From: Desulfarculia bacterium
Lineage (GTDB): Bacteria > Desulfobacterota > Desulfarculia > G963662305
Reading direction: 5' to 3'
NCBI GenBank assembly: GCA_963662305.1
Contig: OY759352.1
Span: 2,013,620 to 2,077,619 of the forward strand
DNA: 64,000 bases
Both the position numbers and the translations under genes were made by a program. The notes beneath the pieces were generated by a model that saw only the letters and a program-made list of their open reading frames with translations, was not told the origin of the DNA and did no database searches. Every line of letters begins with the position of its first letter. Position 1 is the first letter of the stretch. Below, piece by piece: positions 21,887 through 37,287 of this stretch.

Positions 21887-21957
21887 GGCTGTTCTCCCCA
21901 GCGGGCCGAGGGCTTATAATGGCCCCCATGGACTCCGCACCTGAGAGGATTGAACAA

Positions 21958-23136
21958 ATGATTCTGGGCACCTTTTACGATTCCCTGGAGATCCGCCGGG
22001 AGGAGAAGATCATCCTGGCCAGGTTTCTGGAGCCCCACCGGGTCGTCTCCACCTGCCGGGCCGCGGGCGGGATCTCCGACCGGCTGGACTTCGTCTACAA
22101 CCACCAGGTCTGCGAACCCACCAACCACACCCACGGCCTGCCGCCCTCGGCTTTGTCCGACCCCCTGGCCTATCGGGAGCTGATCTGCGGCCGCCACAAT
22201 CTTCCCCCGGACAAGTGCGCCACCTGCGGCACCGCGGCCAACATGAACCAGGCCGCCTTGGTCTCGGAGAAGTTCCGCGACCTGGAGGTGGTGGCCCTGT
22301 GCACAGGCGGGGTGGAGACCAACGCCGGCCGGGTGGGCGATCCGGCCACGGTCTTCGAGGGCCCGGAGGGGTTCGAGAAGCTGGGCCCGGCCGACCCGCC
22401 GGGGGAGGGGACCATCGTGACCATGGTCTTCATCAGCCGGGAACTGGTCCCCGGGGCCATGGTCCGGGCGGTGATGACCGCCACCGAGGCCAAGACCGCC
22501 GTACTCCAGGAACTGGGCGTGGGCTCCTGCTACTCGGACGGCCCGGCCACGGGCACGGGCACGGACCAGATCGTGGTGGCCAGCCGGTTGGGAGAGGGAA
22601 AGCCCCTGACCTGCGCGGGCAAACACTGCACCTTGGGAGAGCTTATCGGCCGGGCGGTCCAGAAGGCCATCGCCCAGGCCCTGGCCGCCCAGAACGGCCT
22701 CACCCCGGCCCGGCAGTGCTCGGTCACGGCCCACCTGGCCCGTTTGGGGGCCGGCCGGGAGTCTCTGATAAAGGGCGTGGGGGCCCATCTGGACGAGAGC
22801 GGAAAACAACTCCTGGCCGACAACTGGGACTGCCTGGACACCGACCCCCTGACCGTGGCCGCGGCGGCGGCCCTGGTCCATCTGCGGGACAAGCTGGCCT
22901 GGGGGGCCCTCTCCCCGGAGGTCCGGCCCGAGGTGCTGGTCTCCTTCGGGGCCCAGCTCTCCGCCGCCGTGTCGGGCAAGAACGGGCTTCTGCCCTGGTT
23001 CAATGAACAGCTGAGCCGAACCCGGCCCGGAGAATCCAACCGGGACTTTCTGAAGCTGGTCCACCGGGCCCTGGGCCTGGGCTTCGGCCGCAAGTGGCTC
23101 TGGCCCGGGGAAGGGGAGCCCGGGGCGGCGGCTTAA
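21958..23136 (+). CDS. CbiZ-like adenosylcobinamide amidohydrolase family protein
   Basis: Sequence blocks VVSTCRAAGG, VALCTGGVETNAG, TGTGTDQIVVA resemble CbiZ; start placed at internal ATG (MILGTFYD); the long antisense ORF 21883-23160 is low-complexity and rejected. Confidence 0.5.
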   Translation: MILGTFYDSLEIRREEKIILARFLEPHRVVSTCRAAGGISDRLDFVYNHQVCEPTNHTHGLPPSALSDPLAYRELICGRHNLPPDKCATCGTAANMNQAALVSEKFRDLEVVALCTGGVETNAGRVGDPATVFEGPEGFEKLGPADPPGEGTIVTMVFISRELVPGAMVRAVMTATEAKTAVLQELGVGSCYSDGPATGTGTDQIVVASRLGEGKPLTCAGKHCTLGELIGRAVQKAIAQALAAQNGLTPARQCSVTAHLARLGAGRESLIKGVGAHLDESGKQLLADNWDCLDTDPLTVAAAAALVHLRDKLAWGALSPEVRPEVLVSFGAQLSAAVSGKNGLLPWFNEQLSRTRPGESNRDFLKLVHRALGLGFGRKWLWPGEGEPGAAA

Positions 23137-23166: not shown

Positions 23167-24951
23167 TCAAAAGGAGTAAATCATTCCGGCCATGAGGGTG
23201 AAGGGCGGGGCCGGATAGCCGTCGCAGTAGAGGTATTCCCGGTCCAGAAGGTTATCTATGCGCAGGTACGCTCGCCAGCCCTCCCAGACATATTCGGCCC
23301 GCAGGTCGAAGAGGTGATAGGAGGGGGCGGTCTCGGTGTTGTCCGAACGGGAATAGGATTCGTCCTGAAAGGTGAAGGACAGGGCCACCATCAACCGCTT
23401 CAGGGGCCGGAGCCGCAGGTCGGCCTTAATTTTGTGCTTGGGCTTGCACGACAACCACAGATCGTTGGTCTCGTCCCGGGCCTCCAGATAGGTATAGGAG
23501 CCGTGCAGCTCCAGCCAGTCCCAGGGTTTGAATTCCAGGGAGGCGTCCACTCCGCGATAGTAGGCCCGGCCGATGTTCCGGTACTGGCCCAGGTTGCCCT
23601 CGGTGTTGATGTAGGTTATGCGGTCGTCGATGAGGTCGTAGAACAGGGAGGCCCCCATGCGGAACATCTTGGAGGGTTCATAGGCCGCCCGGAGGCTCAG
23701 GTTGACGGACTGCTCCATGTCCAGGTCCGGATTGGGGATCAGGGTGGAGCTCTCGTAGTAACGTTGCCTTAAAGTGGGCACATTGTTGGACATGGAGGCC
23801 GAAAAAATGAACTCCAGGGGCGCGGGGGCGTGGCGGACCTGCAGCTCCGGGTTCACCGCCGCATCGAACTCGGAATATAAGCTGGCCCTGAGCCCCAGGC
23901 TGACCCCCAAGGGGGCGAAATCGAACTCCAGCTGCTTCTTGGCGAACAGCCCCAGGGTCTGCTCGTCCCGGTTCTCCATCTTGTTGCCCTGGCCGTGGAT
24001 GTTCTCCGTCTCCAGTCCCAGGGAGAGACGCCCCACCAGGGGCAGCCCCACCTGGGCCCGGACATCCTGCTTCACCTTCCAGCCGGTCATGAGGGTCCGG
24101 TAGTCCGCCCCCTCGGTCCAGGAATCGTTCTCAAAGTGGAGATAGTGGGTCCCGGCCTTGATCTTTTTCCAGCCGTAGGCCAGGGAGGCCCGCAGGGTCT
24201 CGTCCCGGGAGCGGGAATCCGGGGTGGGATACTCCCGGTAACCCGGGTTGCCACTGGTCCGTTTGGCGTAATCCAGGGACAGGACCACGGGCTGCCAGGC
24301 GGTTTTCCCGGCCGGGGAGGCGTCGCCCTCCCCTTCCGGGGGCGCGCTGAAGTCGTAGCCCGCCTTGAACCCGGCCTGGACGGTCTCCTTGTCCCCGTTG
24401 TTGCGGTACCCGTCGGTGCGGCAGTACTCCCCGCTGGCGGCCAGGGACCAGGGCCCGGCCGAGGCGGACAGGTTGGCCCCGGCCTTGGCCGAGCCCAGGT
24501 TGCCGCCGCCGGCCTCGATCCGGCCGCTGACCGCCTTCTTGGTCTTCTTGGTGTAGAACAGGACCACCCCTCCGGAGCTGTCGTCGCCGTAGTCCACGGC
24601 CCCGCCGCCCTTGATGATCTTCACCTTTTCCAGGCTGGCCAGGTTGACCAACCCCAGCTTGACCTCGCTGTGGGAGGAGACCGGGTTCTTCAGGGGCGCG
24701 CCGTCCAGGAAGACCTTCACCGCATAGGAGCCCCGGATGCCCACCGTGGTCTCCGAGGCCTTGACCCCGGGGACCAGGTTCAGCAGCTCCACCACGGAGT
24801 AGACGTTGAGCTTCTTTATCTCCTGGGCGGTTATGACCACCACGTCGCCGTGGTCCTGGTCTTCTTCCCCGGCCACGGCCGGAAAGGTCGAGCCGAACAG
24901 AAAGAAAGTTGCCAGCAGAGCCGAGATAAAGAGCGTGGATTTCTCGAACAT
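23167..24951 (-). CDS. TonB-dependent outer-membrane receptor
   Basis: Start at MFEKSTLFISALLATFFLFG (signal peptide); plug-domain motifs (VVVITAQEI, VPGV, IRG), beta-barrel region, C-terminal aromatic residue (F). Confidence 0.85.
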   Translation of the reverse strand: MFEKSTLFISALLATFFLFGSTFPAVAGEEDQDHGDVVVITAQEIKKLNVYSVVELLNLVPGVKASETTVGIRGSYAVKVFLDGAPLKNPVSSHSEVKLGLVNLASLEKVKIIKGGGAVDYGDDSSGGVVLFYTKKTKKAVSGRIEAGGGNLGSAKAGANLSASAGPWSLAASGEYCRTDGYRNNGDKETVQAGFKAGYDFSAPPEGEGDASPAGKTAWQPVVLSLDYAKRTSGNPGYREYPTPDSRSRDETLRASLAYGWKKIKAGTHYLHFENDSWTEGADYRTLMTGWKVKQDVRAQVGLPLVGRLSLGLETENIHGQGNKMENRDEQTLGLFAKKQLEFDFAPLGVSLGLRASLYSEFDAAVNPELQVRHAPAPLEFIFSASMSNNVPTLRQRYYESSTLIPNPDLDMEQSVNLSLRAAYEPSKMFRMGASLFYDLIDDRITYINTEGNLGQYRNIGRAYYRGVDASLEFKPWDWLELHGSYTYLEARDETNDLWLSCKPKHKIKADLRLRPLKRLMVALSFTFQDESYSRSDNTETAPSYHLFDLRAEYVWEGWRAYLRIDNLLDREYLYCDGYPAPPFTLMAGMIYSF

Positions 24952-24962: not shown

Positions 24963-27900
24963 TCAGCCAATTCCGTCCTCGATGTCGCCTTCGATGTCCA
25001 GATAGATGGATTCCAGCCGTTCCTTGGTTTCCTGGTCGGTGTTCCACATCTCCCGGCTGATGGCCTCCAGGAGGCGTTCGGCGATGTTCTGAAGGGCGTG
25101 GGGGTTGACCTCCTTGAGCCATTCCCGCATCTTGGGATCAAAGGCGTATTTCTCGGCCAGGCCCTCGTACATCCAGTCCTCCAGGACCTTGGAGGTGGCG
25201 TCCCAGTGAAAGGCGTTGTCCACCTGGCGGGAGAGATCCCCGGCCCCCTTGAACCCGTGTCGCATGAGGCCCTCGATCCACTTGGGGTTGAGGATGCGGG
25301 AGCGGAAGACGTGCTTGGCCTCCTGGTGGAGGGAGCGGTTCTTGACCCGCTCCGGATCCGAGGCGTCGCCGATGTAGGCCCGGGGCAGACTCCCGGAAGT
25401 GGTTTTGACCGCGCAGAAGAACCCCCCGAAGTAGGCGTTGTAGTCGTCCGAGCCCAGGATGTCGTACTCCCGGGAGTCGTCGCTCTTGAACAGGAGCTTG
25501 ATGTCGGAAAGCCTGCGGCGCAGTTCGTCCTTCATGGGGGCGCCGTATTCGCCCTGGCCGTAGCCGTACCCGGCCCAGGACAGCCAGACCTCGGTCAGGT
25601 CCTCGGCCGTCTCCCAGGCCTTGGCGTCGATGGCTGCGGCCACCCCGGCCCCGTAGGTCCCGGGCGGGTCGGAGTAGATCCGGAAGGAGGCCTTGCGGAC
25701 CGCGTCCTCGGGGCTGAGCCCCTGCTTCTCCAGCTCGGCCGCCTCCCGCATCACGTTGCGCCGCAGGAAGTTGGACTCGGGCGGCTCCTTGAGGGCGGCC
25801 ACCATGCGGGCCGCCTGGTCCAGCATCTCCATTAAATTCGGGAAAACATCCCGAAAAAGCCCGGTGGTGCGGAAGGTGATGTCGATGCGGGGGAACTTCA
25901 GCTCCGCCAGGGGGATCACCTCCACCCCCTCCACCCGGCCGCTGCGCTCGTTCCAGACCGGCCGCAGACCCATCATGTACAGGGCCTGGGCCAGTTCCTC
26001 CCCGTGGGTCCTCATGTTGGAGGTGGCCCAGATGAGCATGCCCACGTTGTCCGGCGGGGAGCCGGTCTCCCGGCGGTAGCGCTCCACCAGGTCGTCGCCC
26101 AGGGCCTTCCCCACCTTCCAGGCCGAGGTGGTGGGCAGCTTCTGGGGGTCCACCGAGTAGAAGTTGCGGCCCGTGGGCAGGACATCGGTCTGGCCCCGGG
26201 TGGGCGCGCCCGTGGGTCCGGGGCGGACGAATCCGCCGTTGAGGGCATGAACCACGGCCTCCATCTCGTCCGTGGTCCGGGCCAAATTGGGCAGCAGGGT
26301 CTCCTTGAGAAACTCGACCACCTTGCCTATCCCGGGATTTTCCCTTGCCAGGGGGTGCTCCCGGCCGGCGATTGTGGCGGCCACGATCTCCATGCAGGTC
26401 CGGTGGACCGCCTCCAGGACCGTGGCATAGGTGGGGTGTCTACCGGAAGGATCGGCCTTGCCCCGCTGGGCCAGGAGTTCGTCATAGTCGTAGCCCCAGT
26501 GCCGGGCCACAGACTCCCGCAAGGAGGGCACCGGGCCGTTGTTGATCCGGACCATCTGGGTGGTGAGCTCGGTGAGCGCGTCCCCCTGGGGCGGAATACC
26601 CAGGATGTGGAGCCCGTCGGAGATGGCCGTGTCCGCGCACTCGCTCAAATAGGAGTGGAGCTTCTCCAGGAACTCCTCGAAGTTGTCCAGGGCCTGGTCC
26701 TTTTCCATCTCCAGGTCCCGCTGGAGATTGGCCTGTTCCACGGCCTCCCAGATCTGGTCCCGGACCACGGGCAGCCGGGTGGGGTTGGTGGCCTTGGTCT
26801 GAATATACTGGAGGACCAGGTTGTCCACCTCGGCCAGGCCCTCGTATTTTTCGGCGTTGGTCATCACCGGGATAAGGTGGTCGATCAGGGCGCAGTAGGA
26901 GCGCCGCTTGGCCTGGGTGCCTTCTCCTGGGTCGTTGACGATGTAGGGGTAGATGTTGGGCAGGGTGTTGATGGCCAGATCCGGGTAGCACTCCGGACCC
27001 AGGGCCACGCTCTTGCCGGGCAGCCACTCCAGGGAGCCGTGCTTGGCGATGTGCATCACCGCATCGGCCTGGAACACGTCCCTGATCCAGCGGTAGTAAT
27101 AGAGATAGTGCCAGGAGGGGGACATGTAGGGGTCGTGGATCATCTCCGGCCGCTCCACAAAACCCCGGGGCGGCTGGATGCCCACGTAGACGTTGCCCAG
27201 GATCAGTCCGTTGATCAGAACCTGGTCCTCGTGAACGAACAGCTCGCCCGGGCTCTCCCCCCAGTCCTCGGCCATGGCCCGGGTGTTCTTTTCCGGTAAC
27301 TCCTTGTTCCAGGCCTGGTGGTGGATTGCTCCGGCCCGGTCAGCGGCCCGGGCGGCCATGTCCGCCGGGGTGAGCCAGCGCTGGTCCACGGACAGCCCGG
27401 CCACCATGGCCTCGGCCAGCTCCTGGCAATCTGCCAGGGAATGCTCCACCCCGTAGCCCTCCTCCTTGAGCCTGCCCAACAGGTCGAACACGCTGGCGAA
27501 CGTGTCCAGGCCCACTCCGCAGCCGATCTTGTCGTTGCGGGGCGGGTAGTTGTGGAAAATGATGGCCACCTTCTTTTCGGAGTTGGGCTTGATCCGAAGC
27601 CGGGCCCAGTTGATCGCCAGGGCCGCCGCCTTGCCGATCCGCTCGGGCAGGGGCACGCTCCGGACCAGCTTGGCCCCGGTAAGGGGGTCCTGGCCCAGAT
27701 CCTCCTTGACCGAGGAGGGCACGGCGATGAGGTTGCCGTCGAACTCGGGCGCGGCCACGGACATGCTCACGTCCATGGGGTTCACGGCCTGATCCGTGGT
27801 CTCCCAGAACTCCTTGTCCGAGGTCAGGGGCATGGCCTGGAGCACGGGCACGTCCAGCTTGTTCAAAAGGGCCGCCTCCTGGGGCCGGAGCAGGGACAGG

Positions 27901-28685
27901 GAGAACATCATGGGGTTGATCAGGCAGTGGATTATGGTCTTGTCCTTGATTTTGAAATAGTTCTCGATGACCCAGGCCGTGTCCCTGGACTCGATCAGGG
28001 GATGGGGATAACGGCGGTAGAAACAGCCCACGGGAATGGCGCCCTGGTCCTCCACGGCCCGGACAATGGCGTCCATGGCCTCCAGGTCCCCCTCCTGAAA
28101 CAGGTAGCTGGGAAACCAGATCCCGATCACCGGCCTGGTGGGCCGGGTCAGGTCGGTCTCGGTCAGGCCCAGACCCTCCAGGTAGGAGTTCAGGTCCTCC
28201 CGCACCCCCAGGTCCGGATGGTAGAGCCCCTGGCTGGGCAGGGGGGCCGGAGGCCGGGCCTCCAGGCTTAGGGCGGCCCGCAAAAACTGGTAACGGTTCT
28301 CATCCCCGCCGTGGAGCAGGTACTGGACCCGGTCTTCGTAGACCTGGTCTCCGAACCCGGTGGAATGCTCCCGGGAGAGGAGGGTCTCCTCGTCGTCCCC
28401 GGGATGGACGTATATTTCGGTTCCGCCTTGCTTTGCAGCCTCAATCAGGCGGGCGAAGAAAGGGCAGGAGGATTTGCCGCCGTGGAGCAGGATCACAACC
28501 AGGTCGGCCGAGGCGGCCTCCCGGAGAAAGGTCTCCACCTCCTGGTCCGTGGTCAGGTCCTCCCCGGAGCGGGCCAGCAGGTTCAGCCCCCCGGGAAACT
28601 CCTCCAGCAGCCTGGTGGCGGCCCGGCTCCAAGAGCCCAGGCCCAGGCTTCCGGCGGCGTACATGACGATATTCTTAGCAGGCAT
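24963..28685 (-). CDS. CobN/Mg-chelatase large-subunit family protein (paralog 2)
   Basis: Start at MPAKNIVMYAAG (ATG 28685, AAGGGA upstream); CobN-type blocks (HYLYYYRWIRDVFQADAVMHIAKHGSLEWLPGK, GGFVRPGPTGAPTRGQTDVLPTGRNFY). Confidence 0.85.
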   Translation of the reverse strand: MPAKNIVMYAAGSLGLGSWSRAATRLLEEFPGGLNLLARSGEDLTTDQEVETFLREAASADLVVILLHGGKSSCPFFARLIEAAKQGGTEIYVHPGDDEETLLSREHSTGFGDQVYEDRVQYLLHGGDENRYQFLRAALSLEARPPAPLPSQGLYHPDLGVREDLNSYLEGLGLTETDLTRPTRPVIGIWFPSYLFQEGDLEAMDAIVRAVEDQGAIPVGCFYRRYPHPLIESRDTAWVIENYFKIKDKTIIHCLINPMMFSLSLLRPQEAALLNKLDVPVLQAMPLTSDKEFWETTDQAVNPMDVSMSVAAPEFDGNLIAVPSSVKEDLGQDPLTGAKLVRSVPLPERIGKAAALAINWARLRIKPNSEKKVAIIFHNYPPRNDKIGCGVGLDTFASVFDLLGRLKEEGYGVEHSLADCQELAEAMVAGLSVDQRWLTPADMAARAADRAGAIHHQAWNKELPEKNTRAMAEDWGESPGELFVHEDQVLINGLILGNVYVGIQPPRGFVERPEMIHDPYMSPSWHYLYYYRWIRDVFQADAVMHIAKHGSLEWLPGKSVALGPECYPDLAINTLPNIYPYIVNDPGEGTQAKRRSYCALIDHLIPVMTNAEKYEGLAEVDNLVLQYIQTKATNPTRLPVVRDQIWEAVEQANLQRDLEMEKDQALDNFEEFLEKLHSYLSECADTAISDGLHILGIPPQGDALTELTTQMVRINNGPVPSLRESVARHWGYDYDELLAQRGKADPSGRHPTYATVLEAVHRTCMEIVAATIAGREHPLARENPGIGKVVEFLKETLLPNLARTTDEMEAVVHALNGGFVRPGPTGAPTRGQTDVLPTGRNFYSVDPQKLPTTSAWKVGKALGDDLVERYRRETGSPPDNVGMLIWATSNMRTHGEELAQALYMMGLRPVWNERSGRVEGVEVIPLAELKFPRIDITFRTTGLFRDVFPNLMEMLDQAARMVAALKEPPESNFLRRNVMREAAELEKQGLSPEDAVRKASFRIYSDPPGTYGAGVAAAIDAKAWETAEDLTEVWLSWAGYGYGQGEYGAPMKDELRRRLSDIKLLFKSDDSREYDILGSDDYNAYFGGFFCAVKTTSGSLPRAYIGDASDPERVKNRSLHQEAKHVFRSRILNPKWIEGLMRHGFKGAGDLSRQVDNAFHWDATSKVLEDWMYEGLAEKYAFDPKMREWLKEVNPHALQNIAERLLEAISREMWNTDQETKERLESIYLDIEGDIEDGIG

Positions 28686-28687: not shown

Positions 28688-29746
28688 TCAGATCCCTTGT
28701 TCCAGGCAGCGGTGCAGGTTGCGGCGCAAAAGACACTCCGAGGGCGAGGGCTCGTCCGGGCGGCCGGTCTCGGCCAGCCGTCGGGAGGGGCAGCCGCCCC
28801 GGCATATTTTGACCGTGGGGCAGTCCGAGCATTCCGGAGGCAGGCCCCACAGCCGGTCCTTTCCGGACAGCTTTTCCGGTTCCGGTTCCCAGATCGTTCC
28901 GGCGGCCAGTTCCTCCCGGCCGGCCAAAGAGGCGCAGGGCCACAGCCGCCCCTTGGCGTCCACGGCCGCGGCCAGGCCGCAGGCGGCCAGGCAGTAGGGC
29001 TGGACCTCCTTTTCCCGGCTGCGGCGGAGAACCTGGTCCACCTCCCGGACCTTCAGCGGCGGAAAGCGCCGGGAGTTGATAAAGGCCAGGGTCCTGACCA
29101 GCCGGGGCGCGGTCTCCTCGATCTGCTCCGGCAAAGGAGCCAAGTCGCTCTCAGCCGCCCGGCCCAGGGGGCGGACCAGGTCCAGGTTGAGCACCCGGAT
29201 TGAGGCGCGCCCGGCGCAGAAAAGCAGAAACTCGGGCAGGTGCTCCAGGTTGTGTCTGGTCAACACCACGGTCAGGTTCACCCCGGCCCCAGATTCATCA
29301 AGCAGATCCAGGGCCTCAAGCGTCTTCCCGGTCCGGCTCCGGGTCAGCTCGTTGACCTGGGGCAGGCCGTCCAGACTGAGCCCCAGCCCGACCTTGTGCT
29401 CCAATAAAAAGCTTAGTTTTTCCCGGTCCAGGAGCAGCCCGTTGGTCTGGAGGGCCAGCCGGGGCCGGGGCTCCAGCTCCGAGGCCCGCTCCACCACCTC
29501 CTTGACCGCGGGAAAGACGGTCAGGGGCTCGCCCCCGGTCAGCTCCACGGTGAGCCGGCCTTGGCCCTTATCCGAACCCAGGGGTTGGGGCGAGCAGGAC
29601 CTGATGGCCAGGAGGGCCGTTTCCGGGTCCAGCTCCGCCCCTTCCTGCCCGGCCTCGGCGTAGCAGTAGGTGCAACTGAGGTTGCACTTCTCGGTCAGGG
29701 TCAGGACCAGGAAGTTGGCCCTGATCGCGGCAAGGGTTTGCGTCAC
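28688..29746 (-). CDS. Radical SAM enzyme with C-terminal SPASM/twitch-like Cys-rich domain
   Basis: CxxxCxxC (CNLSCTYC), LTGGEP; C-terminal cysteines CLAACG...WPC...CSDCPTVKICRGGCPS; start overlaps ChlI-like stop, stop abuts CobN-2 start. Confidence 0.75.
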   Translation of the reverse strand: MTQTLAAIRANFLVLTLTEKCNLSCTYCYAEAGQEGAELDPETALLAIRSCSPQPLGSDKGQGRLTVELTGGEPLTVFPAVKEVVERASELEPRPRLALQTNGLLLDREKLSFLLEHKVGLGLSLDGLPQVNELTRSRTGKTLEALDLLDESGAGVNLTVVLTRHNLEHLPEFLLFCAGRASIRVLNLDLVRPLGRAAESDLAPLPEQIEETAPRLVRTLAFINSRRFPPLKVREVDQVLRRSREKEVQPYCLAACGLAAAVDAKGRLWPCASLAGREELAAGTIWEPEPEKLSGKDRLWGLPPECSDCPTVKICRGGCPSRRLAETGRPDEPSPSECLLRRNLHRCLEQGI

Positions 29747-30762
29747 TTCCCGGCGGCCCCGATGTCCTCAAAGGGCAGCCGCCGCATGCGGTGGGGCAGG
29801 GCCATGGCCGCGGCCCGCTCCACGTCCTTTTCCTCCACCGTGGTCCGGCCCTCCCAGGCGGCCAGGGTCTTGGCCGCCTTGAGGATAATGATGTCGGCCC
29901 GGTGGCCCTGGACCTCGGCGGCCAGGCACATCTCGGCGATGCCGGTCAGCGCGGCCTTGTCTGCCTCCACCTTATCCAAAAGCCCGGCCGCCTCCCTGAT
30001 CCGTTCGGTGATCTTTTGGTCCTCCTCCTGCCACTGGCGGCTGAAGGCCTCCGGGTTCTCGTCAAAGGCGGCCCGGCGGACCATGATCTCCACCCGGTCC
30101 TGGGCCTTGCGCAAACCCGCCACCTGAACGCACAACCCGAAGCGGTCCAGGAGCTGGGGCCGCAAGTCCCCCTCCTCCGGGTTCATGGTGCCCACCAGGG
30201 TGAACCGGGCCGGATGGGTGAAGGAGACCCCTTCCCGCTCCACGGTGCTGGCCCCCATGGCGGCGGAGTCCAGGAGCACGTCCACCACGTGGTCGTCCAA
30301 AAGGTTGACCTCGTCCACATAGAGGATGCCCCTATGGGACCCGGCCAGGAGCCCGGGCTCGTAGTGCTTCTCGCCCTCCTTGAGGGCCCGCTCCAGGTCC
30401 ATGGTCCCCACCACCCGGTCCTCGGTGGCGCCCACGGGCAGCTCCACCACCCGGACCCGGCGGGAGACCAAGGGCACCTCCTCCCCTGCCAGGACCTTGG
30501 CCCGGCACTCGGCCCTGGGGCAGTCTTGGCAGGTGGGGCCGCCCAGTTCATCCGGACCCAGTTGGAAGGGACAGTGCTCCACGGTCTTTATCTCCGGCAG
30601 GATGCGGGCCAGGGCCCGCACCGCGGTGGACTTGGCCGTGCCCTTTTCGCCCCGGACGAGCACCCCGGACAGGGTGGGGTTGATGACGTTGAGAATGAGC
30701 GCAAGTTTAAGCTGCTCCTGGCCCACCAGGGCCGCGAAGGGGTAGTTGCTGGTTTCAGACAA
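29743..30762 (-). CDS. AAA+ ATPase, Mg-chelatase subunit I (ChlI/BchI/CobS-like) family
   Basis: Walker A VLVRGEKGTAKST, Walker B ILYVDEVNLLDDH, sensor/arginine-finger regions. Confidence 0.85.
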   Translation of the reverse strand: MSETSNYPFAALVGQEQLKLALILNVINPTLSGVLVRGEKGTAKSTAVRALARILPEIKTVEHCPFQLGPDELGGPTCQDCPRAECRAKVLAGEEVPLVSRRVRVVELPVGATEDRVVGTMDLERALKEGEKHYEPGLLAGSHRGILYVDEVNLLDDHVVDVLLDSAAMGASTVEREGVSFTHPARFTLVGTMNPEEGDLRPQLLDRFGLCVQVAGLRKAQDRVEIMVRRAAFDENPEAFSRQWQEEDQKITERIREAAGLLDKVEADKAALTGIAEMCLAAEVQGHRADIIILKAAKTLAAWEGRTTVEEKDVERAAAMALPHRMRRLPFEDIGAAGK

Positions 30763-32805
30763 TTAGCTGTTCCTCCTGGCTATCTCCACCAGTTCCTGGG
30801 CTTTTAGATCCTCTATCTTGAAGTATTCGGCCCCCAGTTCCCGGGCCAGGCGGGCGGCCAGGCCCAGACGGACGATCCCCTGGGGCTCGGTATCCACCAC
30901 CACGAACTTGGCCCGTTCCTCCCGGCCCAGCCGCCCAGCCATGGCCAGGGCCTCCTGGAGGGGTTCCATCTCGGTCCCCAGGCCGGAGTTGGCCTTGCCG
31001 TCGGTGATGACGACGACGATGGGCCGGGCCTCGGGCTCCTTGCTCAAATGGTTGCTCAGCTGGCGGTGGGCCTCGGCCAGACCGGCCGAGACCGGGGTCC
31101 GGCCGCCGATGGGCAGCTCCTTGAGCAGCCGGGCGGCCAGGTCGATGGACGAGGTGGGCGGCAGGTTCACCTGGGCCTCGGTCTTGCGGAAGGTCACCAA
31201 ACAGACCTTGTCCCGCTTCTGGTAGGCGTCCAAAAGCAGGGACAGGATGGCCCCCTTGGTGGCGATCATCCGGGCCCGGACCCCCATGGACCCGGAGGCG
31301 TCCACCACGAACAGAAGAAAGCTGCCGATCCGCTTTTCCCGGACCTTGGTCCGGATGTCCTGGTCGTGGACGCAGACTTGCAGGCCTGATGAACCCTTGC
31401 GCCGGAGCTGGTAGGGGGCCGCGGCCCGGAGGGTGGCGTCCAGGGCCAGGTCGTTGTTCTCCCGGTTGAGATCGGCCTTGACGTAGCGGCCCTGTTTCTG
31501 GCTGGTCCGGGTGGGGGAGCGGCGGCCCGAGCCCCGGCGCAACCGGCGGTCCTTGGGCTGGCGCAGGGTCTTGACCTTAAAGGTCTGGCCCACCTCGAAG
31601 ATCTGCTCCTCCTCCCCGTCATCCGTGTCTTGGTCCTGGGGGGGCTCGGGCGGTTCGGGCAGGGGCAGGTCAAAGGGCTCGTCCAGGTCGTCGTTTTCCT
31701 GGTCCTCCTCCTGGTCCTGGTCGTCGGGCGGGGTCTCGGGCGGCTCCTCCGGTTCCTGGTCCTCCTGCTCCTCCGGCGGCGGAGGGGGCGGCGGGGGCGG
31801 AGGCAGGGGATCCCGGCGGCGGTGGAGCAGGGCCAGGGGGGCCACCCGGATGACCAGGTCCTCGCCGACCTCGGTCCGGCCCTCATAGGCGGCCAGGGCC
31901 CGGGCCGCCTCCCGGATGACCAGGTCGGCCCTGTGCCCGGCCACGTTGTTCTCCAGGCACAGCGAGGAGATGAACCCCTCCACCCGCCGCTCCAGTCTGA
32001 TTTTGGGCAGCAGCTCCCGGGCCCGGACCACGGCTTGGGCCAGCTTCTCCTCTTCCTGGGCGAATGAGGCGGCAAAGCCCTCCGGGTTGTGGTCGTATTT
32101 CTCCTTGCGTTCCATTAGCTCCACCCGGTCGCCCACCTCGGGCTCGCCCTTGACCTCCACGGCCAGGCCGAAGCGGTCCAGGAGCTGGGGCCGCAGCTCC
32201 CCCTCCTCCGGATTCATACTGCCCACCAGGATGATCCGGGCCGGGTGGCGGAAGGAGATCCCTTCCCGCTCGATCACGTTGACCCCCGAGGCGGCCGCGT
32301 CCAGGACGATGTCCACCAGATGGTCGTCCAGGAGGTTGACCTCGTCCACATAGACGAACCCCCGGTTGGCCCGGGCCAGCAGGCCCAGGGAGATGAGCCT
32401 TTGTCCGGTCCTGACCGCCCCGGTGAAGTCCAGCCCGCCCAGGACCATGTCCTCGGTGGCGTTGAGGGGCAGGTCCACCACCCGCACCGGTCGCCTCTCC
32501 CGTTCCCGGGGGTGGCCGTTGGAACGGCAGTCGGAGCAGAACAGCTCCGGGGCCTCCGGGTCGCAGCCGAAGCGGCAGCCCCGGACCACCTCTATCTCCG
32601 GCAGCAGCCCGGCCAGGGAGCGGACCGTGGTGGACTTGGCCGTGCCCTTCTCCCCCCGGATCAGAACCCCGCCCACACCAGGGTGGACGGCGTTCAAAAT
32701 CAGGGCCAGCTTCATCTCCTCCTGGCCCACAATGGCGCTGAAGGGAAAGGCCCGGTGCATGGACCGGATCGGGAACTGGATAGGTTGGGCTTGGGGTTGG
32801 CTCAT
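30763..32805 (-). CDS. Mg-chelatase subunit D-like protein (AAA+ N-domain, Pro/acidic linker, C-terminal vWA domain)
   Basis: Start at MSQPQAQ (ATG 32805); N-terminal ChlI-like AAA+ (IRGEKGTAKST), polyproline-acidic linker (PPPPPPPPPPEEQEDQE...), vWA MIDAS-like motif FVVDASGSM. Confidence 0.85.
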   Translation of the reverse strand: MSQPQAQPIQFPIRSMHRAFPFSAIVGQEEMKLALILNAVHPGVGGVLIRGEKGTAKSTTVRSLAGLLPEIEVVRGCRFGCDPEAPELFCSDCRSNGHPRERERRPVRVVDLPLNATEDMVLGGLDFTGAVRTGQRLISLGLLARANRGFVYVDEVNLLDDHLVDIVLDAAASGVNVIEREGISFRHPARIILVGSMNPEEGELRPQLLDRFGLAVEVKGEPEVGDRVELMERKEKYDHNPEGFAASFAQEEEKLAQAVVRARELLPKIRLERRVEGFISSLCLENNVAGHRADLVIREAARALAAYEGRTEVGEDLVIRVAPLALLHRRRDPLPPPPPPPPPPEEQEDQEPEEPPETPPDDQDQEEDQENDDLDEPFDLPLPEPPEPPQDQDTDDGEEEQIFEVGQTFKVKTLRQPKDRRLRRGSGRRSPTRTSQKQGRYVKADLNRENNDLALDATLRAAAPYQLRRKGSSGLQVCVHDQDIRTKVREKRIGSFLLFVVDASGSMGVRARMIATKGAILSLLLDAYQKRDKVCLVTFRKTEAQVNLPPTSSIDLAARLLKELPIGGRTPVSAGLAEAHRQLSNHLSKEPEARPIVVVITDGKANSGLGTEMEPLQEALAMAGRLGREERAKFVVVDTEPQGIVRLGLAARLARELGAEYFKIEDLKAQELVEIARRNS

Positions 32806-32807
32806 GC

Positions 32808-33542
32808 TCACAGACTCGCTTTCCGGACGCAACGCCCGGCCCAATAGAAAAAGACCAGACCGAAAAGAACCAGGACCAGCAGGGAAATCCACGGAAAGGG
32901 TCTGTCCAGGGCGGCGGCCCGGATGCACTGGCTGGCGTGGGTCAGGGGCAGGGCCTTGACCAGCCAGGCGGCCCACTGGGGCAGGCTTTCCAGGGAAAAA
33001 AAGGTGCCGCACAGAAAGGTCATGGGGGTGATGATGAAACTGTTGAGGCTGGACTGGTCGGCGTGGGACTTAACCTTCATGGCCCCCACCACCGAGGCCG
33101 CGGCGAATACGAAGGTGTTCAGCCCCAGGGAGAGCAGCAACAGGGGGCTGGGGTCGATCCGGACCCCGCCCAGCAGGGCCAGGAGGGCGATGATGGCCGC
33201 GCCCAACAATCCCCGGACCATGCCGGCCAGGACCTCCCCCAGGGTGATGGCCAAATGGTGGAGAGGCGCGGTCTGGAATTCCTCAAAGGTCATCCAGTAG
33301 AACCGGGCGATGTTGATGTCCATACCGATGGACCAGGCCTGGCTCATGGAGGTGAGGGACATGAGGCCGGGGATCATGAAGGTCAGGTAGTCCACCCCCT
33401 CCATGGTCACCGACCGGCCCAGCCCCCAGCCAAAGGCGATCAGGAACAGGGCCGGGCCGATGGCGTAGCTGATCAGGGTCTTGACCATCCGCCGTCTGAG
33501 GATGGCCATCTCCCGCCAGAAAACCGCGTAAACCGCCTTCAT
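32808..33542 (-). CDS. ABC-2 type transporter permease
   Basis: 244 aa, six predicted TM segments, ABC-2 family pattern; start overlaps upstream ATPase stop. Confidence 0.7.
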   Translation of the reverse strand: MKAVYAVFWREMAILRRRMVKTLISYAIGPALFLIAFGWGLGRSVTMEGVDYLTFMIPGLMSLTSMSQAWSIGMDINIARFYWMTFEEFQTAPLHHLAITLGEVLAGMVRGLLGAAIIALLALLGGVRIDPSPLLLLSLGLNTFVFAAASVVGAMKVKSHADQSSLNSFIITPMTFLCGTFFSLESLPQWAAWLVKALPLTHASQCIRAAALDRPFPWISLLVLVLFGLVFFYWAGRCVRKASL

Positions 33543-34408
33543 GGCCGCACCCTCCGCCCGGTGAGCCGGATGAATACATCCTCCAGGTTGGCCGTCCGGA
33601 TGAGTACATCGCCGGACATATCGGCCGCATGGGCCGCGGCCCGGTCACGGTCCTCGAAAAAGGTCATGCCGTCCTCCTCCCCGGCGCACTCCACCACCAC
33701 CCGGCCCACCCGCTCCAGCAGGGCGGCCGGGGTGTCCAGGGCGATGATCCGGCCCTGGTCGATGATGCCCACCCGGTGGCAGAGCTTCTCGGCCTCCTCG
33801 ATGTAGTGGGTGGTCAGGAAGATGGTCGCCCCGGAGCGGAGGCTGGCCTGGATCAGTTCCCACAGCCGCCGCCTGGTCTGGGGGTCCAACCCCACGGTGG
33901 GTTCGTCCAGGAAAAGGATCCTGGGTTGGTGAAGCAGGGCCCGGGCGATCATCAGCCGCCGCTTGAGTCCGCCGGAGAGGACCTTGGCCTGGGCCTTGCG
34001 GCGGTCGGACAGGCCGGTGAACTCCAGCAGCTCGTTGATCCGGGACTCACGCCGGGGCGGGTCCATGCGGTGGAGCAGGCCGTGGAGTTTCAGATTCTCG
34101 TATACCGACAGTTCGGCGTCCACGTTGGTGTGCTGGGGACAGACCCCGATCAACCCCTTGGCCGCCACCGCCTCCCGGACCACGTCGTGGCCGAAGACCC
34201 GGGCGGTTCCCTTGTCCGGCTTGGTCAGGGTGGTCAGGATCCTGACCGTGGTGGTCTTGCCCGCCCCGTTGGGGCCCAGGAACCCGAATATCTCCCCCGG
34301 CCGGACGGTCAGGCTGAGGCCGTCCACGGCCTTGACCTGGCCGTAGTGCTTGACCAGATTCTCTATCTCGATGGCCGGTCCGTCCATGTTTCCTCTCGAT
34401 TCAGTCAT
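33539..34408 (-). CDS. ABC transporter ATP-binding protein (ABC-2/DrrA-like)
   Basis: Walker A GPNGAGKTT, signature LSGGLKRR, Walker B ILFLDEPTVGLD. Confidence 0.8.
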   Translation of the reverse strand: MTESRGNMDGPAIEIENLVKHYGQVKAVDGLSLTVRPGEIFGFLGPNGAGKTTTVRILTTLTKPDKGTARVFGHDVVREAVAAKGLIGVCPQHTNVDAELSVYENLKLHGLLHRMDPPRRESRINELLEFTGLSDRRKAQAKVLSGGLKRRLMIARALLHQPRILFLDEPTVGLDPQTRRRLWELIQASLRSGATIFLTTHYIEEAEKLCHRVGIIDQGRIIALDTPAALLERVGRVVVECAGEEDGMTFFEDRDRAAAHAADMSGDVLIRTANLEDVFIRLTGRRVRP

Positions 34409-35216
34409 GATTCCGGGTATCTCCCCCGGAGGGGATCTCCTCCGGGGGCAGGGGGGCCTCCACCCGGATCAGGGGCCGGCCCCGGGAGTCCAAATCCACC
34501 CGGGCCCTGACCCCGTAGACCCGGGCCAGGTTCTCCGGAGTCAGGACCAGGGCCGGCTCGCCCAGGGCCGCCACCCGGCCCTGGTGGAGCAGGACCAAAT
34601 CGTCGGCGTACCGGGCGGCCAGGTTCAGGTCGTGGAGGCTCACCGCCAGGCAGAGCTGCCGGGACTCCTTCAAGCCGGTCAACAGGTCCAGAACCTCCAG
34701 CTGGTGGCGCAGATCCAGGTTGCTGGTGGGCTCGTCCAGGAGCAGAATCCGGGTCTCCTGGGCCAGGGCCCGGGCCAGAAGGGCTTTTTGTTTTTCTCCC
34801 CCGCTGAGCTCGTCGAAATAGCGTTCGGCCAGCCCGGTCAAACCAAGCGCGGCCAGGGCCTCCTGCACAGCCCGGCGGTCCTCCGGCCCCACCCGGAAAC
34901 GGAGATGGGGCCGCCGGCCCAACAGGACCACCTCGGCCACCGTGGCGGCCACGGACTGGGCCCCGTTCTGGGGCACGTAGCCGATCTCCCGGGCCAGGGC
35001 CCGGGCTGATAGGCGGGCCAGGTCTCGGCCCTCCAAGAACAGGCTGCCCTGGCCGGGTTTGAGAATCCGGTCCAGACAGCACAGCAGGGTGGACTTGCCC
35101 GACCCGTTGGGGCCTATCAGCCCGGTGAGTCGCCCCGGACGGAGATGCAGGGAGACCCGGTCCAGGACCCGGCGACTGTTGTAGGAGAACTCAATGTTTT
35201 CGGCCCGCAGGGTCAC
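34401..35216 (-). CDS. ABC transporter ATP-binding protein (Fe3+-siderophore/B12/heme importer type)
   Basis: GTG start at 35216 overlapping permease stop (GTGA); Walker A GPNGSGKST, LSGGEKQ, ILLLDEPT; the upstream part of ORF 34401-36110 is a spurious extension. Confidence 0.8.
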   Translation of the reverse strand: MTLRAENIEFSYNSRRVLDRVSLHLRPGRLTGLIGPNGSGKSTLLCCLDRILKPGQGSLFLEGRDLARLSARALAREIGYVPQNGAQSVAATVAEVVLLGRRPHLRFRVGPEDRRAVQEALAALGLTGLAERYFDELSGGEKQKALLARALAQETRILLLDEPTSNLDLRHQLEVLDLLTGLKESRQLCLAVSLHDLNLAARYADDLVLLHQGRVAALGEPALVLTPENLARVYGVRARVDLDSRGRPLIRVEAPLPPEEIPSGGDTRNHD

Positions 35217-36250
35217 GACAGCCAGTCCTTCCTGCGCCGGGCCAGGAGATAGAGGAAAAAGGGTCCGCCCAGAAGGGCGGTCATGATTCCCACCGGCATC
35301 TCCACCGGCCAGACCAGGCTCCGGGCCGCCGTGTCCGCAGCCAGGAGCAGCCCGGCCCCCACCAGGGCCGAGGCCGGGACCAGGAAACGGTGGTCCGAGC
35401 CGATGAGGCTGCGGGTGATGTGGGGGGCCATGAGGCCGATGAAGTTGATGGCCCCGGTAAAGGAGACCACCGAGGCGGTTAAAAGAGTCGACAGGAGCAG
35501 GGTCGCAAGCCTCACCCGGCCCACCCTGACCCCCAGGCTGTGGGCCGTCTCCTCGCCCGCGCCCAGGGCGTTGAGGTCCCAGGCCAGAAACATGAGGGCG
35601 AGGAGGCCCAGGAGGACCACCGGAGCCAGGAACCAGACCGTCTCCATCTGGGCGTCCCACAGGGAGCCCATGAGCCAGAAGACAACCTCCCGGAGGTCCT
35701 CCTCTTTGGCCACATACTGGAGCAGGGAGACCAGTCCGGAAAAGATGTAGCCCACGGCGATGCCGCTGAGGATGATGGTCTCCCGGCTGGACTTGGCCAG
35801 CCGGGCCAGCACGTAGGCCAGAATCATGGCCGCCGAGGCGGTGACAAAGGCGTTGGCCACCACCAGGTAGCGTCCCAGGCCCAGGATATCCACCCCCAGG
35901 ACCAGGGCCAGGGCCGCGCCGAAAGCCGCTCCGGAGCTGATGCCCAGCACGGCCGGGCTGACCAGGGGATTCATCAGCACGGCCTGGGTGCCGGTGCCGG
36001 CCAGGGCCAGGCCCGCGCCGGCCACCAGGGCCAGCAGCACCCGGGGCAGCCGCAGCTCGAAGACGATCACCGCCGCCTGGGCCGAGGGCTCCCGGGCCGG
36101 GCTGAGCCACTCCCAGAAGACCCGGGCCACGGTCTTGAGTCCGTAACCGGACAGCCCCACCGAGGCTCCCAGGAGGATAAGAGCCAGCAACGCCGCCCCT
36201 AGGACGGCCAGGACAAACACTTTTCGGGAATGGCTGATGCTTTTGGTCAT
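35213..36250 (-). CDS. FecCD-family ABC importer permease
   Basis: 345 aa multi-TM FecCD-type sequence. Confidence 0.85.
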   Translation of the reverse strand: MTKSISHSRKVFVLAVLGAALLALILLGASVGLSGYGLKTVARVFWEWLSPAREPSAQAAVIVFELRLPRVLLALVAGAGLALAGTGTQAVLMNPLVSPAVLGISSGAAFGAALALVLGVDILGLGRYLVVANAFVTASAAMILAYVLARLAKSSRETIILSGIAVGYIFSGLVSLLQYVAKEEDLREVVFWLMGSLWDAQMETVWFLAPVVLLGLLALMFLAWDLNALGAGEETAHSLGVRVGRVRLATLLLSTLLTASVVSFTGAINFIGLMAPHITRSLIGSDHRFLVPASALVGAGLLLAADTAARSLVWPVEMPVGIMTALLGGPFFLYLLARRRKDWLS

Positions 36251-37287
36251 GGAATAAAGTAGGTCCCGTCCATCTCCAGGCCGAAGAACCGGCCCAGCAT
36301 CTCCCGGTGGATGGCCCGGGGGTCTACCTCGGCCATTTTCCCGGGATGAAAAACTTTGGCCAGGTGCAGCGCTCCGATGAGGTTACGCAGCCCGTATCCG
36401 ATGCGACTGTTGTAGAGGTAGACCCGTCCCCGGGCCGTGCACTTCAGGCCGCGGATGCCCGGCCGGTTCATGGCCTCCTCCCTCAGGGCGGCCATGTACT
36501 CCCGGTCCGGCACCTTGAAACCCACCCCGGTGAGGTCCGCGGACAGGGCCAGATGGTCCGGGGCCTGGTCCACGATCCACTCGGCCGAAACCCGCTGATA
36601 GGGCAGGGGCAGGGCATCGGAGATGTTCCTGCCTCCGGCCAGGGGGATAATCTGGCGGCCCCTCTTGTCGTTGGAGGTGAAATACAGCTGGCGGCCCGAT
36701 CCCAGAAAGACCCGGGGCCGCTCCTCCGGGGTCAGGTCGCCCAGGCGCCGGTCCAGCAGCCGGACCTGACGGTCCAGAAAGCCGTTCAGCTCCTGACCCC
36801 GCTCCTCCTGCTGAAACAGCTCCGCCAAGGCCTTGACCATGCCCTTGATCCGGCCCTGGAAGTAGCCGTTCATGAACACCACCGGGATGCCCAGGGATTC
36901 CATTTTTTCGGCGGTGTTGAAAAAATGGGTGTCGGCGATGATCAGATCCGGCTTCAGCTTCCAGATCAGCTCCAGGTTGGGATGGACCACCGAGCCGATG
37001 GAGGGCCGGGCCTCCAGGGCCGGGGGCCAGTTGGTCCAGTCGGAGCGGGCGATGATCCGCTCTCCGGCGCCCAGGGCCCAGACCGTCTCCGTGGCCGCGC
37101 CGCCCAGGACCATGGCCCGCCGGATCGGCCGCTTCACCTCCCGCTCCCGGCCCATCATGTCCGCCACCTTGAAGAACCCGGGGCGTACCTGGAGGACCTG
37201 GGGATCCGGGTCAAAGCCGCACCAGGCCGGAGCGGTCCAAAGCGTCGCAGCCACAAGGATCATGGTTAATGACAGACGGTTCGCCAA
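36247..37287 (-). CDS. Periplasmic substrate-binding protein (iron-siderophore/B12/heme ABC importer)
   Basis: 346 aa, signal peptide, two-lobe PBP pattern; operon with permease and ATPase. Confidence 0.8.
   Translation of the reverse strand: MANRLSLTMILVAATLWTAPAWCGFDPDPQVLQVRPGFFKVADMMGREREVKRPIRRAMVLGGAATETVWALGAGERIIARSDWTNWPPALEARPSIGSVVHPNLELIWKLKPDLIIADTHFFNTAEKMESLGIPVVFMNGYFQGRIKGMVKALAELFQQEERGQELNGFLDRQVRLLDRRLGDLTPEERPRVFLGSGRQLYFTSNDKRGRQIIPLAGGRNISDALPLPYQRVSAEWIVDQAPDHLALSADLTGVGFKVPDREYMAALREEAMNRPGIRGLKCTARGRVYLYNSRIGYGLRNLIGALHLAKVFHPGKMAEVDPRAIHREMLGRFFGLEMDGTYFIP

Follow-up and report, generated by a model that had tools for sequence, protein, structure and literature searches.

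AhbD and NirJ are radical S-adenosylmethionine (SAM) enzymes with a SPASM domain that act on metallated tetrapyrroles, abstracting hydrogen from a side chain and using auxiliary clusters as outlet for the electron. Here we describe an enzyme of the same radical SAM and SPASM architecture and of similar size, encoded by a gene (further called rSAM) at positions 28688..29746 on the minus strand of a 64,000-nucleotide stretch from a Desulfarculia bacterium (NCBI GenBank assembly GCA_963662305.1, contig OY759352.1, positions 2,013,620 to 2,077,619), which as a whole is referred to as the window. In the window the gene stands between those of a ChlI-like motor subunit and a CobN-type cobaltochelatase (CobN-2), and AhbD and NirJ provide the best mechanistic analogy for such a radical SAM enzyme coupled to a tetrapyrrole chelatase. 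They differ from the window enzyme in family, as judged by profile scores, in gene context and in substrate, which is an iron porphyrinoid in their case and presumably a corrinoid here.

Ever since comparative genomics drew attention to them, class I (CobN/ChlID-type) chelatase genes have lacked an explanation where they occur in the B12-regulated uptake operons of strict anaerobes. Such anaerobes synthesise B12 with early insertion of cobalt, for which neither CobN nor ChlID should be required. The closest precedent on the chelatase side is metalloporphyrin salvage by 'BtuS'/HmuS, in which, as in the window, a class I chelatase homologue is present in TonB-dependent uptake operons of anaerobes and serves salvage and not de novo synthesis (PMC6460266, PMC12583661). 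The Bacteroides homologue HmuS is a heme dechelatase (PMC12583661), a result which shows that class I chelatase homologues can do unexpected things and which provides a precedent for an unexpected direction of catalysis. In contrast to HmuS, the window CobN-2 scores far higher with true CobN (752 bits) than with HmuS (348 bits), keeps its ChlI and ChlD motors and is regulated by B12 and not by iron or heme, and the hmu papers describe no radical SAM partner. For CobN-like proteins in btu operons a role in salvage and not in de novo synthesis was proposed by Rodionov et al. (2003), to judge from the citation in PMC6460266, and according to the HmuS paper it is still unclear what CobN homologues do in archaea and anaerobes (PMC12583661).

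An operon of closely related content is operon-2 of Dehalobacter restrictus, which is riboswitch-controlled and carries cbiZ and btuFCD-like genes (PMC4285132, Rupakula et al. 2015). Its cobN, chlI and chlD, a SPASM-type radical SAM gene, an ABC-2 transporter pair, btuFCD-like genes and cbiZ are all found in the window too; cobN comes first in operon-2, whereas the order in the window is chlD-chlI-rSAM-cobN. Upon corrinoid starvation, the first gene of operon-2 was de-repressed 346-fold in this proteomics and reverse transcription quantitative PCR study, and its supplement reports the SPASM protein Dehre_0290 to be up 17-fold, CobN 31-fold and the ChlD-like Dehre_0288 46-fold, with the separate NirJ1 and NirJ2 genes of this organism displaying an abundance pattern unlike that of operon-2 (PMC4285132). 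This is the one experimental data set in the literature on such an operon. While the paper comments on CbiZ and the transporters, it passes over the radical SAM protein, and Dehre_0290 occurs only in the supplementary tables (PMC4285132). The gene family has thus far been seen only as an undiscussed table row, and our literature search retrieved no functional statement on this rSAM enzyme. A sequence-only reading of the window had been unable to assign the pairing of a radical SAM/SPASM enzyme with a class I chelatase to a described pathway, and we likewise found no curated family, functional name or discussing paper for it.

According to both the list of open reading frames (ORFs) and the sequence itself, rSAM encodes a protein of 352 amino acids with a GTG start. 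The plus-strand letters tcac at 29743-29746 correspond to GTGA on the minus strand, in which the GTG of rSAM (29746-29744) and the TGA of the ChlI-like gene (29745-29743) share a 4-nt overlap, and the TGA stop of rSAM (28690-28688) is followed by a 2-nt spacer (28687-28686) and the ATG of CobN-2 (28685-28683, MPAKNIV...). Both junctions, the overlap with the ChlI-like stop and the 2-nt distance to the CobN-2 start, had been noted from the letters and are borne out, all genes concerned lying on the minus strand; rSAM is translationally coupled to chlI and cobN in the window. It is a genuine gene and not a chance ORF of GC-rich DNA, since its product matches Pfam Radical_SAM (PF04055) with 62.5 bits against a gathering threshold of 29.5 and has homologues down to E = 3e-150. 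Its N-terminus is in register with those of the homologues in an alignment of 30 members. Tight coupling to chlI or cobN recurs in related loci, with overlaps of 4-16 nt or gaps of less than 30 nt, and in the gene maps of three of these loci (L001, L002 and L006; numbers preceded by L denote loci of our surveys) rSAM directly adjoins chlI or cobN with 4-nt overlaps.

The protein carries the SAM-cluster motif C21-X3-C25-X2-C28 (CX3CX2C), accompanied by an aromatic residue (Y27/Y29) and a GGEP motif (G71 G72 E73 P74), and both CX3CX2C and GGEP are invariant among the 30 aligned members. Equally invariant in these members is a seven-cysteine motif, C252-X13-G266-X4-C271 ... C306-X2-C309-X5-C315-X3-C319 ... 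C338, in agreement with the SPASM consensus that we used for two auxiliary [4Fe-4S] clusters (CX9-15GX4C - gap - CX2CX5CX3C - gap - C). The window protein gave no match to the Pfam SPASM model PF13186 at E <= 0.01; this domain is carried by the more distant family members P0048 and P0049. The SPASM assignment holds because the seven-cysteine motif is invariant, the fold matches those of the anaerobic sulfatase-maturating enzyme (anSME) and CteB over the SPASM domain, and the distant members possess PF13186. An AlphaFold2 model built from the 30-member alignment, with a mean predicted local distance difference test score (pLDDT) of 94.2 and a predicted template modelling score (pTM) of 0.92, shows alternating strand and helix elements of the partial TIM-barrel type. 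Foldseek returned 98 matches in the PDB at E <= 0.001, and all among the matches listed are radical SAM enzymes; the top whole-protein match is anSME, with template modelling (TM) scores of 0.78/0.75, followed by CteB, SkfB, ChlB, SuiB and TigE. At the residue level, the C-terminal part of the protein lines up with the SPASM domain of CteB and with that of anSME. A profile search of the PDB sequences ranked CteB first (171 bits), then anSME (139 bits over residues 7-334). These motifs and folds identify the protein as a stand-alone radical SAM/SPASM enzyme, with one SAM-cleaving [4Fe-4S] cluster and two auxiliary clusters expected.

Compared with its closest structural relatives, rSAM shares with anSME (PDB 4K36-4K39) a two-domain layout without extra domains, two auxiliary clusters and the closest whole-protein fold match, and differs in its score on the anSME model, in its catalytic site and in its gene context, with no sulfatase gene near rSAM. 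In a residue-level profile alignment the catalytic Asp277 of anSME is replaced by Ala or Ser throughout the rSAM family ('YPCaSL' opposite 'YPCDFY' in anSME), and no conserved cysteine stands opposite C261 of anSME, leaving three conserved cysteine ligands for auxiliary cluster I. Because there are three and not four such ligands, this cluster probably has an open or non-cysteine-ligated iron site, as in CteB. The thioether maturases of the CteB/SCIFF and PapB types thus resemble rSAM in this probable open site and give its best profile scores, and differ in that rSAM is without an RRE-like leader-binding domain, that no precursor gene was found next to it and that it stays far below their cut-offs. 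There is no N-terminal extension for leader-peptide recognition, the SAM motif starting at residue 21 and CteB aligning only from its residue 94. PapB-type maturases are similarly compact, so the absence of a leader domain does not exclude every maturase.

Comparison with the NCBIfam models for AhbD/NirJ, anSME and the other SPASM subfamilies reached no named subfamily. It yielded 70 partial matches, none of which comes near its curated cut-off: the nif11 maturase model scores 101.3 bits (cut-off 518.7), PapB 100.4 bits over the full length (cut-off 340), CbpB 80.4 bits (cut-off 375), anSME TIGR03942 74.4 bits (cut-off 349.45), NirJ 54.7 bits over residues 12-178 only (cut-off 515.45) and NirJ1 46.1 bits in the N-terminal SAM core only (cut-off 650), and AhbD is absent from the best 25 of the 70 matches. 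The likeness to AhbC, AhbD and NirJ that had been suggested by the sequence-only reading stands as far as the radical SAM/SPASM class is concerned and fails for a specific AhbD/NirJ-like sequence. In the public sources, the members of the sampled clusters bear no more specific name than 'radical SAM protein' or 'radical SAM/SPASM domain-containing protein'. Homologues fall into tiers, with some 47 close relatives (43-67% identity, ~335 amino acids), next a group at 29-37% identity, and then a drop to generic peptide maturases of 465 amino acids. A hidden Markov model (HMM) search of 1.84 billion representatives retrieved at least 104 single-domain clusters (50% identity) at 218-476 bits, comparable to the 213-469 bits of the cobN-linked proteins. 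On these scores, rSAM is assigned to a distinct, unnamed SPASM subfamily without a curated model, and what is new here is a SPASM subfamily tied to a class I cobaltochelatase.

The same HMM search brought up large metagenomic proteins (P0190, P0205, P0149, P0165 and ~35 others) with two to four tandem radical SAM/SPASM modules, those with a Peptidase_MA_2 domain being ~1110-1165 amino acids long; we did not come across a description of them. Such proteins of 740-1640 amino acids were considered as Rosetta-stone fusions to the chelatase or CbiZ and were rejected, as Pfam finds in them 2-4 tandem modules, in some with Peptidase_MA_2; neither were they retained as members of the subfamily, their single domains scoring 89-192 bits, below the range of the cobN-linked proteins, and their high rank arising because the domain scores are summed.

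Linkage to cobN was examined in both directions. In the forward direction, species-representative genomes were scanned with the family alignment, and the 80 resulting loci were each searched for the neighbour genes of the window. At every locus where rSAM scored at least ~119 bits and enough flanking sequence was available, a CobN-2-type cobN and chlI/chlD were present, usually together with cbiZ, the ABC-2 pair and btuF/fecCD, and three loci at 95-107 bits likewise carry the chelatase module, which brings the positive loci to 16 of 16. None of the cobN, chlI, chlD, cbiZ, ABC-2 or btuF-fecCD genes was found at the remaining, generic SPASM loci among the 80, whose scores lie below ~105 bits. 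The positive loci originate from Desulfarculaceae (L001), Ruminiclostridium (L002), Clostridiales (L004), Fusobacterium necrophorum (L006), Phascolarctobacterium (L007, L011, L014), Desulfovirgula (L008), Bacillota (L009), Treponema (L010), Dehalococcoidales (L012), Succiniclasticum (L013), Desulfocarbo (L015), Actinomycetes (L020), Selenomonas (L022) and Methanosarcinales (L025), so that the linkage extends over Thermodesulfobacteriota, Clostridia, Negativicutes, Fusobacteria, Spirochaetes, Chloroflexi, Actinobacteria and one Methanosarcinales archaeon; the bacteria belong to at least seven phyla. Three further metagenome contexts of close relatives (3/3) contain the same module plus a BtuR adenosyltransferase, a CbiR-like AP_endonuc_2 protein, a CN-hydrolase and CbiK.

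In the reverse direction, an alignment of ten rSAM-linked CobNs led to 79 cobN-relative metagenome loci, which were scored with the subfamily HMM. A subfamily rSAM (at least 246 bits) occurs in 45 of the 79, and in 20 of the 30 loci that have full 10-kb flanks on both sides, mostly at -16 to +26 nt from cobN. The ten rSAM-less loci with full flanks often retain chlI/D, cbiZ, ABC-2 and btuFCD. Non-orthologous replacement of rSAM was considered for L138, L143 and L146 and rejected, the ORF in the slot being another BtuF-like binding protein; no enzyme was found in the place of rSAM in the rSAM-less cobN clusters, whose other unlabelled ORFs are regulators, a peptidase and de novo cbi genes. In a CobN tree, loci with rSAM are intermingled with those without it, except for one small all-negative clade, and rSAM shows no strict co-variation with a separate short ChlI subunit. 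Since rSAM was never seen without cobN at loci with enough flank, while about one third of the related cobN clusters do without rSAM, it is a frequent accessory of the chelatase and not a core part of it. Co-occurrence with cobN is conserved across genomes, and the view, first taken from the window alone, that rSAM is an integral part of the chelatase operon is supported both by the coupling in the window and by the linkage to cobN, chlI and chlD in the three sets of loci (16/16, 3/3 and 20/30).

No conserved precursor peptide accompanies the gene: in a survey of 63 loci, small ORFs on the same strand within 600 nt are common only to sets of near-identical loci. A precursor gene has no room in the window operon, in which the largest intergenic gap is ~100 nt and rSAM itself is flanked by the 4-nt overlap and the 2-nt gap. 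With neither a maturase cut-off reached nor a conserved precursor ORF present, an assignment to a peptide-maturase subfamily with a precursor nearby, which would have spoken against a tetrapyrrole-related role, did not emerge. In some closely related gut Negativicutes loci, rSAM is followed by a 110-amino-acid protein with an internal repeat and a C-terminal GGCGHH (L132 14644-14976, also L134, L136, L137 and L140), which looks like a small metal-binding protein, is limited to these loci and is absent from the window. At the Desulfocarbo indianensis locus (L015 9977-10450), the rSAM ORF comprises only 157 amino acids and comes after chlD and chlI in an operon with a riboswitch at its head; this short ORF is a pseudogene, a frameshift or an assembly error.

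CobN-2 (24963..28685, minus strand, 1240 amino acids), the large subunit encoded directly downstream of rSAM, matches PF02514 with 1251 bits and passes the NCBIfam equivalog cut-off for cobaltochelatase CobN (TIGR02257, 968 versus 822 bits). Against structures, it scores 752 bits with CobN 7C6O and 711 bits with CobN 9UK9, compared to 511 bits with ChlH and 348 bits with the heme dechelatase HmuS. By these scores CobN-2 is classified as a true corrin-type cobaltochelatase and not as a dechelatase of the HmuS/BtuS type, which points to a corrin substrate. A divergent paralogue, CobN-1 (18143..21886, minus strand; PF02514 1010 bits), stays below all NCBIfam cut-offs and is roughly equidistant from CobN, ChlH and HmuS; neither an rSAM nor ChlI/D genes adjoin it, and similar second copies occur in L001, L008, L130 and L160. 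Two or three full-length cobN genes lie within 20 kb in L092, L135, L161 and L009, and each copy often comes with a separate TonB receptor or binding protein, which suggests substrate-specialised chelatase paralogues.

The array to which these genes belong is headed by a cobalamin riboswitch (41255..41440, minus strand), which matches Rfam RF00174 over the full-length model with 109.7 bits against a gathering threshold of 31.5, lies 101 nt upstream of the first gene and is the sole Rfam element found in the window. From the riboswitch to the second TonB receptor, all genes are co-directional on the minus strand, separated by ~100 nt at most and overlapping in several places, in the order TonB, DUF4214, BtuF, FecCD, ABC ATPase, ABC-2 ATPase, ABC-2 permease, ChlD, ChlI, rSAM, CobN-2, TonB. 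The first gene encodes a TonB-dependent outer-membrane receptor (38982..41153), with homologues labelled TBDR2 in related loci. It is followed by a gene for a secreted protein of 519 amino acids with an N-terminal hydrophobic segment and a C-terminal DUF4214 (37352..38911; PF13946, 27.3 bits), which by its position may be a surface corrinoid-binding protein, analogous to the BtuG type. Next come a BtuF-like periplasmic binding protein (36247..37287; Peripla_BP_2 homologues in related loci), a FecCD/BtuC-type ABC permease (35213..36250) whose gene overlaps that of the BtuF-like protein by 4 nt and which also has homologues in related loci, and a BtuD-like ABC transporter ATPase (34401..35213; Pfam ABC_tran 114.9 bits). 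The ABC-2-type transporter pair consists of an ATPase (33539..34408), the counterpart of Dehre_0291, with homologues of 48-59% identity in rSAM/cobN loci, and a permease (32808..33542; Pfam ABC2_membrane 67.2 bits).

The chelatase motors follow, namely a ChlD-like subunit composed of an AAA+ domain, a Pro/acidic linker and a VWA domain (30763..32808; TIGR02442 798.5 bits versus 779, with AAA_lid_2, VWA_2 and Mg_chelatase), and, with a 0-nt gap, the ChlI-like AAA+ motor subunit (29743..30762; TIGR02030 429 bits, with AAA_lid_2 and Mg_chelatase); both carry a cysteine-rich insert. After rSAM and CobN-2, the second TonB-dependent receptor (23167..24951; Pfam Plug and TonB_dep_Rec_b-barrel) starts 11 nt past cobN-2, and the adenosylcobinamide amidohydrolase CbiZ (21919..23136; PF01955 202 bits) is encoded on the plus strand, opposite to the array. 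In most related loci cbiZ co-occurs with rSAM, and same-strand cobalamin riboswitches precede the rSAM operons in L001, L006, L008, L015, L020 and L022. Judged by these gene and riboswitch assignments, the context is a cobalamin-riboswitch-controlled corrinoid uptake and salvage cluster and not a generic chelatase operon.

By analogy with AhbD and NirJ, rSAM may be an accessory radical enzyme that acts on the salvaged corrinoid handled by the CobN-ChlID chelatase, the reading that we favour and consider to have an even chance of being correct. When B12 is scarce, the riboswitch would open and the whole array would be made, after which corrinoids or corrin precursors would be imported. rSAM would then generate a 5'-deoxyadenosyl radical and take a hydrogen atom from the salvaged macrocycle or a side chain, and the electron would leave through the two auxiliary clusters, as it does in AhbD and NirJ on other tetrapyrroles. 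In this way a subset of the imported compounds could be made fit for ATP-driven metalation by CobN-ChlID, or the product of the chelatase could be processed, and the compound would re-enter the pathway at the level of cobyrinic acid a,c-diamide or cobyric acid. To our knowledge, strict anaerobes are thought to use only early cobalt insertion. A wider and more tentative proposal, rather doubtful as a whole, is that rSAM and the CobN chelatase, joined in some lineages by a nitrogenase-like reductase and a CN-hydrolase, could constitute an undescribed oxygen-independent pathway in which unusable corrinoids or precursors are taken up, undergo radical trimming and redox adjustment and then receive cobalt by ATP-driven (re-)insertion; this would amount to a 'late cobalt insertion' salvage branch with a new radical reaction on the corrin macrocycle. 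The unusable compounds would be cobalt-free, wrongly metalated, over-amidated, oxidised or otherwise damaged corrinoids.

Several points weigh against rSAM acting on a corrinoid. The proposed chemistry rests on guilt by association, and those characterised enzymes that come nearest in sequence and fold have proteins or peptides as substrates (CteB 171 bits, anSME 139 bits, PapB and nif11 maturase ~100 bits) and not tetrapyrroles (NirJ 55 bits). One third of the related cobN clusters run without rSAM and have no other enzyme in its place, which makes it impossible to say which step they would lack, and known routes of corrinoid salvage (CbiZ/CbiR, BtuR, CbiP/CbiB) can proceed without a chelatase and without a radical enzyme. 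Dehre_0290, further, is placed in the rSAM subfamily by its length, annotation and operon position and not by its sequence. The fold search is uninformative on the class of substrate, because the PDB contains no AhbD or NirJ structure and the top matches are inevitably enzymes that modify peptides or proteins.

The main alternative, which we regard as unlikely, is that rSAM is a protein or peptide maturase, which would introduce a modification (a thioether, a C-C cross-link, a formylglycine-type oxidation or an epimerisation) into a protein of the cluster such as CobN, ChlI, ChlD or a binding protein, or into a peptide encoded elsewhere, a modification needed by the chelatase system in some lineages. 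Its closest relatives by profile and fold (CteB, anSME, SkfB, ChlB, SuiB, PapB and the nif11 maturase) all have such substrates, the three conserved cysteines at auxiliary cluster I would leave an open iron site like the one with which CteB binds the substrate cysteine, rSAM is very often adjacent to and coupled with chlI or cobN, and the window ChlI and ChlD carry a cysteine-rich insert. Yet no curated maturase cut-off is approached (~100 versus 340-519 bits), an N-terminal leader-recognition domain is absent, the catalytic Asp277 of anSME has become Ala or Ser, and no conserved small ORF stands beside the gene at the 63 loci; moreover, close CobNs with and without rSAM are intermixed in the tree, a pattern not expected if the maturase were obligatory, and strict co-variation with the short ChlI subunit is lacking. 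An orthologue of AhbD, AhbC or NirJ serving the synthesis of heme or heme d1 and merely located beside chelatase genes would share the radical SAM core plus SPASM architecture, the size of ~350 amino acids and the tetrapyrrole-related neighbours. This is effectively refuted by the profile scores (NirJ 54.7 versus 515 bits, NirJ1 46 versus 650 bits, with matches confined to the N-terminal SAM core), and ahb or nir heme d1 genes are found neither in the window cluster nor in the related loci, where corrinoid salvage controlled by a B12 riboswitch is the conserved setting; in D. restrictus, NirJ1 and NirJ2 are separate and do not follow the pattern of operon-2.

The substrate might also be a corrinoid without the ring being the site of reaction: rSAM would then modify the nucleotide loop, the linker or the lower or upper axial ligand, for instance by radical adenosylation of a Co(II) corrinoid to supply CbiZ with its adenosylated substrate. 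We think this quite improbable, although enzymes that cut the loop co-occur with rSAM (CbiZ at most loci, a CbiR-like AP_endonuc_2 protein at several and a GDPD phosphodiesterase in the window) and riboswitches place its expression under B12 control. The invariable partner is cobN and not cbiZ or the cbiR-like gene, both of which are missing within 10 kb at several rSAM loci, at least one cluster (L161) encodes a dedicated adenosyltransferase, BtuR, and two auxiliary clusters, as is established for SPASM enzymes, typify oxidative radical chemistry and would be superfluous for a simple adenosyl transfer.

If rSAM indeed works on salvaged corrinoids, possibly a new radical chemistry takes place at the corrin ring. 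The conserved radical-enzyme partner is widespread (human-gut Negativicutes, Fusobacterium, organohalide respirers and an archaeon) and B12-regulated, and the protein at the equivalent operon position in Dehalobacter restrictus is induced by corrinoid starvation; it offers an experimental handle on which corrinoid-like compounds anaerobes salvage, a matter that bears on cobamide cross-feeding in gut and dechlorinating communities. Without a curated model or a name, thousands of such genes are annotated only as 'radical SAM protein'.

Other enzymes recur in these clusters, two of which, a nitrogenase-like reductase and a CN-hydrolase, lend indirect support to the corrinoid reading of rSAM. A NifH-like gene and two NifD/K-like genes (PF00142, PF00148) are situated within cobN/rSAM/chlID/btuFCD clusters of Negativicutes genomes and of many human-gut metagenome contigs, both at rSAM-positive loci (L011 844-4226; L132 4424-7800; L007, L013, L014, L134, L137, L140, L147, L149-L151 and L155-L159) and at rSAM-less ones (L138, L143, L146 and L092). 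The nitrogenase-like class is known to reduce tetrapyrrole rings in DPOR, COR and CfbCD (PMC13474568), and the reductases in these clusters are consistent with redox work on a macrocycle; we found no member described that is linked to B12 salvage. A link to the tetrapyrrole clusters of Elusimicrobia with 'Group VI' nitrogenase-like enzymes was considered and set aside as a loose parallel, as these clusters contain B12-binding or HemN-type radical SAM proteins and have no stated link to CobN.

Next to rSAM or cobN, an AP_endonuc_2 protein (a xylose-isomerase-like TIM barrel of ~330 amino acids) recurs at L002 4690-5697, L006 13858-14838, L013 18580-19536, L161 17882-18904 and L162 2390-3388, its gene coming after that of the BtuR adenosyltransferase in L161; the cobamide-remodelling enzyme CbiR belongs to this superfamily. 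A two-domain CN-hydrolase of 505-530 amino acids, an amidase of the nitrilase superfamily, is encoded in the window (15764-17281, minus strand, Pfam), in L001 (5261-6853) and in L160 (5312-6841), in the latter two as the first gene after the riboswitch and directly before chlD. Among the 79 cobN-relative metagenome loci, about 25 encode homologues with 26-32% identity, and one may speculate that the enzyme acts on corrin side-chain amides.

In the window, the CN-hydrolase gene belongs to a continuation of the array on the minus strand (10891..18285), all members of which were recognised by Pfam. Directly downstream of CobN-1 lies a GDPD phosphodiesterase with a signal-like N-terminus (17317-18285), which, speculatively, might cut the phosphodiester of the cobamide nucleotide loop. 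The CN-hydrolase is followed by a CcsA-like (15000-15767) and a ResB-like gene (14164-15270) and by a second BtuF/FecCD/ATPase set (13395-14177, 12084-13100 and 10891-12546). The CcsA/ResB-like pair (14164-15767), of a type involved in cytochrome c assembly and heme handling, finds itself in an unusual context between the CN-hydrolase and this second uptake set. Past the salvage array, a phage-type integrase (9049-10242) is encoded, and further on a second, weak radical-SAM-like ORF (6891-8120) scores 23.5 bits on PF04055, below the threshold, beside a STAND NTPase/HEAT-repeat protein of 949 amino acids (4052-6901); the segment 4052-8120 together with 9049-10242 may be mobile or defence-related.

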